DNA from: an archaeon
Lineage (GTDB): Archaea; SpSt-1190; DYHY01
DNA: 64,000 bases
Assembly (NCBI GenBank): GCA_037442745.1
Contig: JBBIPP010000003.1
Coordinates: 1 to 64,000 of the forward strand
Direction: 5' to 3'
Below, piece by piece: positions 31,212 through 34,171 of the stretch. A program made the position numbers and the translations under genes. The first letter of the stretch is position 1; every line of letters begins with the position of its first letter. Below the pieces are notes generated by a model. It saw only the letters and a list, made by a program, of their open reading frames with translations, did no database searches and was not told the DNA's origin.

Positions 31212-32882
31212 TTAAGCTTTTCTTGAAACTGAAAAAGCCCCTTTTCCGGAAACAATTGCGTTAGTTTTGAACAAGTCAGTCCTTGGGGGGCTGTATTCAG
31301 TCTCCTTTCCGGTTCTTCTGTCAACTCGGATTGTTGTTATTCCGCAGGTGGCGCAGCACGAGTTCGAGGCAGAAAAGCCATTCTTTGATATCTGCATTGT
31401 TGTCCAGGAATACTCGAAAATCCCGGTTTCTTCGTCAAGATTGGAAGAGCAAAGGAAGGGAATTTCTATTGTTTCCCGTCCGGCAACTGACTGGGCTTGG
31501 AGATCGCTCCCGGAGACTTTGGATGAATTTATCCCAATTATTGCGAGCGCTGTCGGAACAATGTCTGCCGATGTCCCGAGAACTGGGGTCCTTCCTCCGC
31601 TTGCCCTTGGAACATATATGATTAGGGGAATGTTTGAAGCGCTTGCTGAGGGGATCCAGAATCCGAATGGGGAATATGTTGGAAGAGCGGTTTCAATTCC
31701 TGACTCGCTGTCTTTCAGGTGTAAAGGCTTTCCTGTAAATGGGAGGGGGTATGTTGAGGTAATCACAATTACTGTCTTTCCGAGTAGCCCCTTTTTTTTG
31801 AGAGCTGAGAGTATTTCTGAAATGGATGAATCGAGCAGGTCAAGACCTCTTTTCCTCTCTGAGAAAAGGTCGCCTATTTTCGCATCTTCTCCTTTCAATT
31901 CCGATAAGCGGGCTCCGTTGCCCAGAGGGATTTCCCTATATGCTTTGCCGGATTCCGAATCAACCCTTATTGCCCCGGCTCCGAAAGGATATTTCCTGAG
32001 GGAATATTTCTGCCAGGCAAGCGCGGATTCGCTTGATCTTGCGAAATAGGCGAACTTTTTGTCGTTGGGAATCTTTTCAATTGATTCCGCCAGATTGGAC
32101 AATGCATTTCCTTCAAAGTGCACCTTTTCTACCCTTTCAAGGCTGAAGGGGAGCCCGTAAGCCTCTTCGAGGGTATTTGCTGGATAGTCCGAAAAATATT
32201 CTGAAGAATATCCAAGTTCAGCAGTCTCGGATATTATGAGCATTCTTGAGAGTGAATAGTTGGCTGGTTTGAGCGTTTCGTCCCCGTAAAACGGTGAGAG
32301 AAAAAAACCCCTTTCAGGATCCGGAAGGCTTCCGGATGCAATTGCCTCCTCTTCCGAGAATGCGCCCCCGTATACTGGCGAATATATTTCCTCGAAAATT
32401 AGGGAGTTCGGCTCAAGGGGTCTAAGAGAGCGCAACTTTCCAGTCTCGGAGTTGAATCTGTATTGGGCAACCTCCCCTATTGAGAGGCCGTCTATTGCGA
32501 TTACTATCAGGTTGCAGCCAGGGCAGAGCGCCCGCGGAATGGCTTCTCCGGGAACTGTTCGCCCATCGCTAGATCCTGTGAGGAACCAGACAATGGCAGT
32601 CAGGATTATTGCGGAGACAAGTATTGTTATTGCCGGAAGAATCTTCGGATTCTTCCTAATCTCTGAGATTACTTCCGAGAGCATGTCGAACCCGAGAAGA
32701 ATGATTAAAACAACTCCGACGGCAATGAAAGTGCCTTCAGAAAGCCTTAGGAACTTTTCTTTCGCGCTTAATGCGAAATAGTTGTCGGATCCAAGCCCCC
32801 AGTTAGCGCCTGCGAACGCGAGAAATATTAGGGAGAGCAGGAGGCCTGTCAGCATTCCCTTCAGTTCGGGCATTTTTTGCAC
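31212..32882 (-). CDS. Membrane-anchored sulfatase-like (alkaline phosphatase superfamily) protein, catalytically degenerate
   Basis: 3 N-terminal TMs; CPGCNLIVIAID, GLLGKTVIVITS, IPLIIYVP, DIVPTAL; lacks CxPxR and DHG. Confidence 0.7.
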   Translation of the reverse strand: MQKMPELKGMLTGLLLSLIFLAFAGANWGLGSDNYFALSAKEKFLRLSEGTFIAVGVVLIILLGFDMLSEVISEIRKNPKILPAITILVSAIILTAIVWFLTGSSDGRTVPGEAIPRALCPGCNLIVIAIDGLSIGEVAQYRFNSETGKLRSLRPLEPNSLIFEEIYSPVYGGAFSEEEAIASGSLPDPERGFFLSPFYGDETLKPANYSLSRMLIISETAELGYSSEYFSDYPANTLEEAYGLPFSLERVEKVHFEGNALSNLAESIEKIPNDKKFAYFARSSESALAWQKYSLRKYPFGAGAIRVDSESGKAYREIPLGNGARLSELKGEDAKIGDLFSERKRGLDLLDSSISEILSALKKKGLLGKTVIVITSTYPLPFTGKPLHLKDSESGIETALPTYSPFGFWIPSASASNIPLIIYVPRASGGRTPVLGTSADIVPTALAIIGINSSKVSGSDLQAQSVAGRETIEIPFLCSSNLDEETGIFEYSWTTMQISKNGFSASNSCCATCGITTIRVDRRTGKETEYSPPRTDLFKTNAIVSGKGAFSVSRKA

Positions 32883-32921
32883 CTTTTTTTTCCGGGCAGT
32901 CGCGAGACATTTTCCGGGATG

Positions 32922-33233
32922 TTATTTTATCTCAACTGATTCTTCCGGGAATCCGGCCGATACGAGAGCGGAAAGTATCCTTTTCCGATGGTCTCCTTGG
33001 AGCTCGACAACTCCCGAGCGGTCAGTCCCCCCGCAGGCGAGCTTTTCCTTCAGCTTCTTTGTTACATCTCCGATATTGACGTCGCGGGGATTCAGGCCCT
33101 CTACAAGAGTGACGTTCTTCTTGAACCGCCTCTGCTCGAGCCTCACAATTATTTTCTGGGCTTCCCTAGAAATGCTCTCGCAAACGCAGAAATCCTTTGG
33201 CAATCCGCATTTTTTGCAGACATCCGTTCCTAT
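32922..33233 (-). CDS. Translation initiation factor aIF1/SUI1, probable AUA start
   Basis: CKKCGLPKDFCVCE, LKEKLACGGT, ELQGDHR; the conserved CxxC lies upstream of the only TTG. Confidence 0.93.
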   Translation of the reverse strand: MGTDVCKKCGLPKDFCVCESISREAQKIIVRLEQRRFKKNVTLVEGLNPRDVNIGDVTKKLKEKLACGGTDRSGVVELQGDHRKRILSALVSAGFPEESVEIK

Positions 33234-33490
33234 TTCTTTTTCACGCTCGCTTGGGTTTTGGGGGCTCTTGCCTTTTTACCTTTGCCTTTTTTGCCGTTGG
33301 TTTTGGCGTTTTGGATTGTCAAAAGCTGGGCAACTGTCCTCCTCAGGTTCTTGATTGTGGAGGGTTTTGTCGGGGCGCCTCCGGTAGCGCGCTTTGACTG
33401 CTCCCGCGAAAGCTGGGAGCGCGTCTCCTTGAGCCGTTTTTCTATTTCCTGCCCGTTTCCGGCAAGCTTTGAGAGTTCGTTTGATTTCAT
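33230..33490 (-). CDS. rpl29: Ribosomal protein uL29
   Basis: GGAP..PSTIKNLRRTVAQLLT; position after uS3. Confidence 0.92.
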   Translation of the reverse strand: MKSNELSKLAGNGQEIEKRLKETRSQLSREQSKRATGGAPTKPSTIKNLRRTVAQLLTIQNAKTNGKKGKGKKARAPKTQASVKKK

Positions 33491-33493
33491 TCC

Positions 33494-34171
33494 TTATTCA
33501 ACCTCCAGTTTTGTGTCAACTTTGGCTTCTGCCTTGACCTCGGTCTTGATTTCGGCCTTTGGCTTGGGCGATGGAGTCTTGGCAGTAATTAGTATTTCGT
33601 CCGGGAACGCGACATTCGGGGGCATTATCCTTACCCTCACTCCGACAACTCCCGGTTTCAATTGGGCGTCGTAATAGCCGACCAACACGTCGTCTTTGAC
33701 GACCTGCCCGCAGTGCCGGATGTATCCTTTCTTGAATATCCAATCCTTTGCCCTGGAAGAGGGGACTTTTCCGGAAATCCTGACTTCTGCGCCTCTTGCC
33801 CCGGATTCCATTATCCTGTCAAGAACCCTGTGGGCGACTTTCTTGAAATAATATCCGCGTTCAAGGAGGTTTCCTATTTTCGCCGCTTGGAGCTGGGCGT
33901 CAATGTCCGGCTGTTCTATCTGCTTGACTTCGACCTGCGGATTGTCTATCTTATAGTTGTTCTTGAAAGCGTCTGTGAGATCCTTTATTGCCTCTCCGCC
34001 TCTCCCGATTACGAGCCCGGGCCTTGTTGCGTAGATTATTACGCGGGTTCCCATTGGCGTCCGCTTTATCTCGGCATGTGAGTATCCAGCCCGCCTGAGC
34101 TTTTCGTTGAGATATTTCTTGACTTCTAGCTCCTTTGCCTTTTCCGTTATGAAAAATCTTTCAACTGTCAT
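33494..34171 (-). CDS. rps3: Ribosomal protein uS3
   Basis: RPGLVIGRGG KH domain, GARGAEV.ISGK, GVVGVRVRI. Confidence 0.97.
   Translation of the reverse strand: MTVERFFITEKAKELEVKKYLNEKLRRAGYSHAEIKRTPMGTRVIIYATRPGLVIGRGGEAIKDLTDAFKNNYKIDNPQVEVKQIEQPDIDAQLQAAKIGNLLERGYYFKKVAHRVLDRIMESGARGAEVRISGKVPSSRAKDWIFKKGYIRHCGQVVKDDVLVGYYDAQLKPGVVGVRVRIMPPNVAFPDEILITAKTPSPKPKAEIKTEVKAEAKVDTKLEVE

Follow-up and report, generated by a model that had tools for sequence, protein, structure and literature searches.

An ACG codon at the start position of the translation initiation factor gene aIF1 in an archaeon, and recurrent weak aIF1 starts in other archaeal lineages

Factors that enforce stringent start-codon selection and limit their own synthesis through a poor start are textbook cases of self-limitation both in bacteria (IF3, with an AUU start) and in eukaryotes (eIF1, with a start in poor context). 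Here we analyse the gene for the archaeal factor aIF1 (SUI1) on a stretch of 64,000 nucleotides (nt) of archaeal DNA (contig JBBIPP010000003.1, positions 1 to 64,000; hereafter the window, to which all coordinates refer), in which the codon aligned with the start codons of related genes is ACG, and compare it with these systems. Both aIF1 and the ribosomal protein gene rpl29 ahead of it lie on the minus strand, and the whole analysis consists of the comparative reading of metagenome-assembled genomes.

Bacterial infC, the gene for IF3, autoregulates through its AUU start (Butler et al. 1987, as described in PMC4705826), and eukaryotic eIF1 does so through an AUG whose context is poor (Ivanov et al. 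2010, as cited in both PMC6237735 and PMC4705826). The window resembles infC in that a factor rejecting non-canonical starts is encoded behind a non-canonical start, so that its synthesis should vary inversely with its own level. IF3 and aIF1 are, however, unrelated proteins; the AUU is widely conserved and its feedback experimentally shown, whereas the ACG of the window is private to one species-level lineage and its feedback putative; and the conserved archaeal cases described below are CUG or GUG in other archaea, while initiation in the window is probably reinitiation after rpl29. With eIF1 the likeness extends to the protein, as aIF1 is its homologue, sharing its SUI1 fold and its part in start-codon fidelity, and each has a weak initiation site on its own mRNA; the weakness of eIF1 lies in the Kozak context met during scanning, whereas that of aIF1 would lie in the codon itself, on a polycistronic and translationally coupled mRNA.

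In archaea, aIF1 destabilizes initiation complexes formed on non-AUG codons, a discrimination described for Saccharolobus solfataricus and Pyrococcus abyssi (PMC6237735; PMC4705826), and in Haloferax volcanii aIF1 is essential (PMC3828320). Ribosome profiling in Haloferax placed about 30% of putative alternative initiation sites at near-cognate codons (PMC7261190). Coupling by termination and reinitiation works in archaea (PMC6728339, published in 2019); the junctions studied there resemble the present one, and the ATGA overlap of rpl29 and aIF1 in Hadarchaeota, in having a stop within a few nt of a start, but their start codons are canonical, and junctions with ACG or CTG are not described in the available text of that study. 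The available text of PMC6237735 mentions eIF1 autoregulation for eukaryotes only, and that of PMC4705826 leaves weak starts in archaeal control as an open question. A full-text literature search, outside which most subscription journals lie, yielded no paper on non-AUG aIF1 starts or on ACG starts in archaea. We thus found in print no archaeal counterpart to the self-limitation of IF3 or eIF1, and an earlier annotation of the locus made from its letters alone (the sequence-only reading) was likewise not aware of one.

The evidence for the ACG comes from the alignment of aIF1 5' ends, for which 30 loci of relatives were taken from a genome collection. Ahead of the first cysteine codon (TGC 33218-33216) the aIF1 frame of the window reads ...GAA ATA GGA ACG GAT GTC TGC, and the equivalent stretch of G001, a genome of the same genus, reads ATA AGA ATG GAA GTC TGC, at equal length. 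At the same position G003 has ATG and G002 and G004 have GTG, the protein starting M-E-V-C. Because ACG 33227-33225 is aligned with the ATG or GTG of relatives at the same length, it is on this alignment the positional homologue of their start codon, and one T>C transition separates it from ATG. The surroundings are alike: in both the window and G001 the spacer between the rpl29 stop and the aIF1 start position is 2 nt, and a GTGA 13 nt upstream is the only element resembling a Shine–Dalgarno (SD) sequence. The sequence-only reading had proposed the ATA two codons earlier as the start. That was an interpretation rather than an observation, and it is the ACG that aligns with the starts of relatives; G001 also has the ATA, yet starts at the ATG two codons further on. 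On these grounds we consider it rather probable that aIF1 translation starts at ACG.

Contigs assembled independently from two public sequencing runs, X1 (depth 17.3) and X2 (depth 11.3), showed 0 differences and 0 indels against window positions 32900-33520. The sequence-only reading had raised the concern that one missing G might conceal an in-frame ATG; no base is missing, and this or any other indel is ruled out by the absence of indels in the two runs and by the equal length of relatives. A contig from a run of a different study, X3, represents a strain of about 94% identity (38 differences in 612 nt, of which 32 are listed, the others presumably lying near the ends of the aligned piece). 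In this strain, plus-strand position 33226 is changed from G to A, giving ATG instead of ACG at the aIF1 start, and 33210 T>C turns AAA into AAG synonymously. Because a strain this close, from another study, reads ATG at the same codon, the ATG>ACG change in aIF1 is, as judged from these comparisons, recent and private to one species-level lineage. No X3 difference is listed at 33221-33224, so the strain appears to read ATG GAT GTC TGC and to share the out-of-frame ATG that lies just downstream; as it keeps the in-frame ATG as well, the out-of-frame ATG appears to predate the ACG. The features of the junction, all on the minus strand, are as follows.

33230 to 33490, minus strand: rpl29 (uL29) coding sequence (Pfam Ribosomal_L29, 4.4e-11), with its stop TAG at 33232-33230, 2 nt before the ACG.
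33276 to 33278, minus strand: in-frame TAA that closes the aIF1 frame upstream, within rpl29, from reading the sequence.
33241 to 33244, minus strand: GTGA, 4 nt, the sole SD-like match near the start when compared with the 16S 3' end; also in G001.
33231 to 33233, minus strand: ATA, the candidate start of the sequence-only reading, overlapping the rpl29 stop as ATAG.
33225 to 33227, minus strand: ACG, the proposed aIF1 start, aligned with ATG (G001, G003, X3 strain) or GTG (G002, G004).
32922 to 33227, minus strand: proposed aIF1/SUI1 gene, with 101 codons and a TAA stop (32924-32922).
33180 to 33218, minus strand: zinc-knuckle codons C-K-K-C-G-L-P-K-D-F-C-V-C (CX2CGLPX3CVC), from the translation; motif as defined in PMC6237735.
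32946 to 33161, minus strand: SUI1 domain (Pfam PF01253, 7.8e-20).
33149 to 33223, minus strand: out-of-frame ATG (33223) and its 24-codon open reading frame (ORF), from the ORF list; no difference is listed here in the X3 strain.
33201 to 33203, minus strand: TTG, the first canonical in-frame codon, which is the Leu of C-G-L-P; a start here would drop the first two Cys.
33209 to 33215, minus strand: A AAA AAT heptamer, read in register with the out-of-frame ATG; both the X3 strain and G001 have G in place of its sixth A (33210).
33203 to 33221, minus strand: predicted hairpin GUCUGCA/AAAAA/UGCGGAU over the C-K-K-C-G codons, part of a larger predicted fold.

As the sequence-only reading had stated, no ATG, GTG or TTG occurs in the aIF1 frame from the TAA at 33278-33276 to the first Cys codon, and the out-of-frame ATG does open a 24-codon ORF ending at 33149; all of its coordinates were correct. 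A run of 17 codons with no canonical start is not improbable by chance; its weight comes from the conserved CX2CGLPX3CVC preceding the first canonical codon and from relatives starting exactly at the position of the ACG. The GCGTGA that this reading had called SD-like does lie 7 nt before the ATA, but against the 16S 3' end (...GGATCACCTCCT) pairing is limited to the 4 nt GTGA, placed 7 nt before ATA and 13 nt before ACG. The start region (33140-33260, 121 nt) is predicted to fold at -32 kcal/mol as a long hairpin with the A-run in its loop (z -2.59; 4 of 200 shuffles equally stable).

That the gene encodes aIF1/SUI1, also claimed by the sequence-only reading, is borne out by profile matches. 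The protein matches Pfam PF01253 (SUI1; 8.7e-20, 71.4 bits against a cut-off of 25.5) and NCBIfam NF002096, which NCBI names 'YciH' (127.4 bits against a cut-off of 98), over profile positions 3-101 of 102, position 3 falling on residue 2 when residues are counted from the ACG. It carries the archaeal zinc knuckle CX2CGLPX3C(V/I/M/A)C as C-KK-C-GLP-KDF-C-V-C, a motif found in 64% of 744 archaeal aIF1 proteins (PMC6237735). A single SUI1 gene is present in the window's genome, G000 (1.14 Mb, 20 contigs, 94.5% complete), with rps3 and rpl29 immediately upstream in the same gene order as in relatives. The SUI1 gene of the window is the organism's only aIF1, located directly behind rpl29 in the ribosomal-protein operon. 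Downstream of aIF1 the operon order is broken, as rnp1 and rps17 do not follow, unlike in the Hadarchaeota and Thermococcales-like loci.

ACG is not on the standard list of prokaryotic start codons. A screen of start positions between orthologues of G000 and 593 kb of G001 (about half of that genome), in a strict version of 207 clean pairs, was used to look for further cases; looser versions, swamped by alternative-frame ORFs and by alignments into 5' leaders, were not used, and aIF1 is not among the 207 pairs because of an overlapping, longer antisense ORF. A single G000 gene was conspicuous, that for a TtuA-like PP-loop ATPase (PF01171, 4.8e-14; contig C7, locus L276 1272-2503, outside the window), whose conserved N-terminus starts about 153 codons before the first canonical codon. 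There G000 reads GGAGG, 9 nt, ACG, the ACG lying 5 nt past the stop of a ThiS-like gene (PF02597, 5.9e-7). At the aligned position the codon is ACG in the G003 orthologue, whose frame offers no canonical codon past the upstream stop, ATG in G001, and GTG in both G002 and G004. The ThiS-like gene ends GG-stop, and an in-frame CTG overlapping that stop is an alternative candidate to the ACG.

Other genes show a similar arrangement. A 416-residue membrane protein (L441:261-1508, minus strand, G000 contig C7) has an SD and ACG where G001 and G003 have ATG and G002 has GTG, and a 296-residue protein (L442:239-1126, minus strand, G000 contig C12) has an SD and ACG, its G003 orthologue likewise lacking a canonical start; by eye, a short ORF opened by an out-of-frame ATG overlaps the ACG in both genes (about 7 and 13 codons). 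In G001 the first 199 or so codons of an ABC ATPase gene (L267, minus strand) include no ATG, GTG or TTG; the gene reads GGAGG, 9 nt, ACG, the upstream gene ending in another frame about 20 nt after the ACG. In three cases, the aIF1 of the window, the TtuA-like gene and this ABC ATPase, the ACG lies within about 20 nt of the upstream gene's stop. On these alignments, at least three other G000 genes, and genes in two sister genomes, have ACG where relatives have ATG or GTG, and a special place for aIF1 in this genome is not supported. ACG thus looks like a rare but genuine initiation or reinitiation codon in the window's family, mostly beside the stop of an upstream ORF. A dedicated initiator tRNA reading ACG is ruled out: the sole initiator-like tRNA of G000 is a normal one, with anticodon CAU, an A1:U72 pair and an anticodon stem containing three G-C pairs, and tRNA-Thr(CGU) has G1:C72, resembles tRNA-Thr(UGU) and is an ordinary elongator. 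A separate observation concerns a protein of about 400 residues (G000 contig C8 23993-25217, plus strand) and its G001 orthologue (L263), whose conservation sets in about 47 codons ahead of the first canonical codon; both genomes read AAA ATA ATC there, either a non-canonical start or a conserved leader.

In all, aIF1 starts were collected at about 340 loci, a few of them duplicates. Related genomes are not independent, and as kinship makes formal statistics unsafe only counts are given.

Window's phylum (17 species genomes, 15 with the gene): ACG 1, ATG 5, GTG 8, TTG 1 (non-ATG 10/15).
Thermococcales-like family (30 loci, L333-L362): GTG 30/30.
Thermoplasmatota-like sample: ATG 25, GTG 4 of 29.
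Three further phyla: ATG 49/49.
Metagenome loci (79 with intact 5' end): ATG 75, GTG 2, TTG 2.
Methanobacteriales, Methanofastidiosa and others: ATG 64/64.

To these the Hadarchaeota add family f20, with CTG in 34 of 45 genomes. The search for conserved non-AUG aIF1 starts that the sequence-only reading had suggested gave a divided answer: weak starts recur in other groups, but the window's nearest relatives (X3, G001 and G003) have ATG, and what is conserved is not ACG; an outcome that this reading had itself named as refuting, ATG in all relatives, is thereby partly observed. Across these archaea, weak or near-cognate aIF1 starts are, in these alignments, lineage-specific but recurrent. In the Thermococcales-like loci the neighbouring genes mostly start with ATG (rpl29 28/30, rps17 27/30, rpl14 28/30, rpl24 30/30), and rps3 has TTG in 20 and ATG in 10; the start chosen for rnp1 there (GTG 19, GTA 11) is probably wrong and was not used. 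Family f3 of the window's phylum has an aIF1 that lacks the zinc-knuckle Cys residues.

The most pronounced case is in the Hadarchaeota order, surveyed in 65 species genomes, 64 with an aIF1 gene and 63 with an intact 5' end (L031, L112-L135, L278-L328). The CTG of f20 occurs in ten genera and stands exactly at the ATG of sister families (L-P-E-V-C versus M-P-E-V-C), which have ATG in 18 of 18 genomes (families f29, f30, f31 and f32). In 27 of the 34 CTG-type genomes no ATG, GTG or TTG occurs between the upstream in-frame stop and the first Cys, and in the remaining seven the Val codon beside that Cys is GTG. The other f20 genomes have ATG (5), GTG (4) or ATA (2); the ATA cases are G032, which also lacks a canonical aIF1 start where four genomes of the same genus have ATG, and G089, arranged alike. 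The CTG is invariant (34/34) while the preceding codon takes nine forms and the following codons show synonymous variation; for the Leu of C-G-L-P these genomes use six different codons, CTG in 12 of 34, and of all Leu codons in these genes 24% are CTG. Most CTG-type loci have GGAGGTG 8 nt before the CTG. The CTG-type loci thus share with the window a near-cognate codon at the start position, with no canonical alternative, of the same gene after rpl29; they differ in the codon (CTG, not ACG), in its spread over ten genera, in the strong GGAGGTG 8 nt upstream and in having canonical neighbours. Seven neighbouring genes at 25 loci start with ATG, GTG or TTG wherever the alignment reaches residue 1, with the exception of rnp1 in f32; at 16 of the 25 Hadarchaeota-side loci the rpl29 start is GTG or TTG.

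Of the 34 CTG-type genomes, 20 have an out-of-frame ATG that overlaps the rpl29 stop as ATGA, 7 nt before the CTG, and such ORFs of decoy type in Hadarchaeota run from 7 to 72 codons. A +1 frameshift from this ATG as the general route to Hadarchaeota aIF1 is ruled out, since the ATG is absent in the other 14; further, the CTG of G053 precedes the rpl29 stop, and a TAA stop without any ATG is seen at four loci of the genome collection. An SD-anchored scan of 398 kb from two Hadarchaeota genomes found CTG with an SD at 2 of 42 positions versus 106 of 4391 for other codons, both CTG hits looking incidental; such scans are too noisy for counting non-canonical starts, and this one, which missed the aIF1 CTG itself, is a weak test. 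NCBI records of these proteins (P0004-P0123), named 'YciH', disagree on the start, giving forms of 102 residues from the CTG, 99 from the codon before the first Cys, 96 and 93, the 93-residue forms, from the TTG of G-L-P, making up 43 of the 120 best database hits. Some records begin with M at the CTG (102 residues; P0054 appears identical to the G055 translation), so that the annotation pipeline behind GenBank has already accepted CTG without comment. As a side observation in the same order, rnp1 (RNase P protein 29) of f32 has ATC in 3 of 3 genomes (L130, L131, L132; I-P-I-T versus M-P-I-T) where the others have ATG, GTG or TTG; in L131 the stretch from the upstream stop to the ATC contains no canonical codon, and an AGGAGG precedes the ATC by 6 nt.

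The explanation that we favour as a whole, and hold to be somewhat probable, is that a recent ATG>ACG change has left aIF1 still being made from ACG after termination on rpl29, at a low rate. Ribosomes ending at the rpl29 TAG would reinitiate at the ACG 2 nt downstream, which would be decoded by the ordinary Met-tRNAi, and the out-of-frame ATG, 4 nt further downstream, would capture a share of the reinitiating ribosomes; the outcome would be weak aIF1 synthesis. With the stop 2 nt before the start and only GTGA 13 nt upstream, initiation probably depends on ribosomes arriving from rpl29. Because aIF1 rejects non-AUG codons, output from the ACG would be expected to fall when aIF1 is abundant and to rise when it is scarce; that aIF1 in this way feeds back on its own synthesis through the start codon is offered tentatively, as rather less likely than not. 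It is possible, though doubtful, that this reaches further, with archaea regulating aIF1 as bacteria do IF3 and eukaryotes eIF1, through a start site that aIF1 disfavours, the codon being lineage-specific (CUG in f20, GUG in Thermococcales, GUG, UUG or ACG in the window's phylum), and with ACG in addition accepted as a genuine start at termination–reinitiation junctions in the window's family.

Several points weigh against this explanation. The aIF1 ACG, unlike that of the other ACG genes, has no good SD, GTGA at 13 nt standing alone, and an out-of-frame ATG 4 nt after it should be a strong competitor for ribosomes that reinitiate. That the change is recent, and absent from the nearest relatives, tells against a feedback device selected in this lineage. 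X1 and X2 belong to a single study, possibly the source of the window assembly, and being assembled contigs rather than raw reads they would leave minority ATG alleles invisible. The genome-wide orthologue screen is noisy and covers about half of G001. In a tally of 874 long ORFs, counting codons at least 12 codons ahead of the first canonical start, ACG came top for an upstream SD 5-mer (5/37 versus 206/4798 overall), which is modest support (expected about 1.6, observed 5) and would fail correction for 61 codons. One candidate from the tally, at index 167739 of G000 contig C2, was dismissed, its G001 alignment beginning after downstream ATG codons.

Among the alternatives, the strongest holds that a weak start (GTG, TTG, CTG or ACG) merely lowers aIF1 relative to the ribosomal proteins, with no feedback, the ACG being a tolerated further step down. 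This is quite possible, if short of probable, and such static tuning would fit the comparative pattern about as well as feedback: weak aIF1 starts are lineage-specific rather than universal, with ATG in 75/79, 64/64 and 49/49 loci of other sets, and other genes of the operon are weak too (TTG in 20/30 for rps3, GTG or TTG in 16/25 for rpl29, ATC in 3/3 for rnp1 of f32). It leaves unexplained the extreme cases of aIF1, namely CTG in 34/34 against 12/34 for another Leu codon of the same gene, and GTG in 30/30 Thermococcales-like loci while five neighbouring genes mostly have ATG; moreover, any near-cognate start on the mRNA of a factor that rejects near-cognate starts would give some feedback as a side effect. 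The sequence-only reading had gone further and proposed a selected device in which a near-cognate start (AUA or ACG) is set against a decoy AUG to which high aIF1 diverts ribosomes. The anatomy is present in the window, and 20 of the 34 CTG-type Hadarchaeota have a similar layout with an out-of-frame ATG over the rpl29 stop. In the window's own lineage, however, a conserved, purpose-built device is contradicted by the ATG of the X3 strain (about 94%), G001 and G003, the last two also lacking such a decoy, and the decoy itself appears older than the ACG, given the X3 reading at 33221-33224. As 14 CTG-type genomes do without the out-of-frame ATG, as decoy ORF lengths differ tenfold (7 to 72 codons) and as other G000 genes also use ACG, we regard this device as unlikely.

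The remaining alternatives place the start elsewhere or question the allele. Were translation to begin at TTG 33203, the old start would truly have been lost through the ACG change, and aIF1 would be a 93-residue protein lacking its first two Cys. TTG is the first canonical in-frame codon, zinc knuckles are lacking in 36% of archaeal aIF1 proteins (PMC6237735) and in f3 of the phylum, and gene callers give 93-residue forms for Hadarchaeota in those 43 of the 120 best hits; but the TTG has no SD ahead of it and is 27 nt from the rpl29 stop, half a zinc knuckle (two of four Cys) is unlikely to fold, and the family has ACG at the start positions of other genes, which together make this start distinctly unlikely. 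The ATA at 33233-33231 is in frame, 7 nt after GTGA and joined to the stop as ATAG, and ATA does replace a same-genus ATG in Hadarchaeota G032, with G089 alike. It is nevertheless not the codon aligned with the starts of relatives, G001 bypassing its own ATA and G003 having an in-frame stop two codons before its ATG, and the family's other non-canonical genes have ACG, not ATA; initiation there is very unlikely. Similarly improbable, and slightly more so, is an allele that is defective or unrepresentative, through a deleterious mutation, a consensus artefact or replacement of the gene by an unassembled copy. A recent, private change in a genome 94.5% complete would allow it, against which stand the same consensus in two runs (depths 17 and 11), a frame intact over 101 codons, the single SUI1 match in the genome and the essentiality of aIF1 where tested (PMC3828320). 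Initiation might also take place at the out-of-frame ATG 33223, the one strong start codon in the vicinity, with ribosomes then slipping -1 into the aIF1 frame on A AAA AAT (33215-33209), a heptamer that fits X XXY YYZ, whose completing base at 33210 is specific to the window's genome and which lies in a region more stably folded than most shuffles. The first Cys would be missing from the product, the heptamer is not conserved (absent in the X3 strain and G001), no downstream stimulator is shown and at 6% divergence 20 nt are expected to hold one synonymous change, so that a frameshift is highly improbable. C-to-U editing of ACG start codons occurs in plant organelles, and editing of this kind would account for several genes in three genomes having ACG exactly at the ATG of relatives; we know of no such mRNA editing in archaea, and of all the alternatives this one seems to us the most far-fetched.

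The window offers a clean natural case, with a one-base ATG>ACG change in a single-copy aIF1 gene, and the conserved CUG and GUG cases are directly testable in the 30S systems of P. abyssi or S. solfataricus with aIF1, aIF1A and aIF2. ACG as a working start in an archaeal family would bear on how strict archaeal initiation is, and also on gene calling, as current callers truncate such genes or miss their starts.

Two further ORFs adjoin the locus. A 228-codon ORF on the plus strand (32988-33674), antisense to aIF1 and rpl29 and longer than either, is probably not a gene. Downstream of aIF1 lies a 556-codon ORF (31212-32882, minus strand) with GTG as its first canonical codon and a hydrophobic N-terminus, for which the match to sulfatase is only sub-threshold (0.0047).

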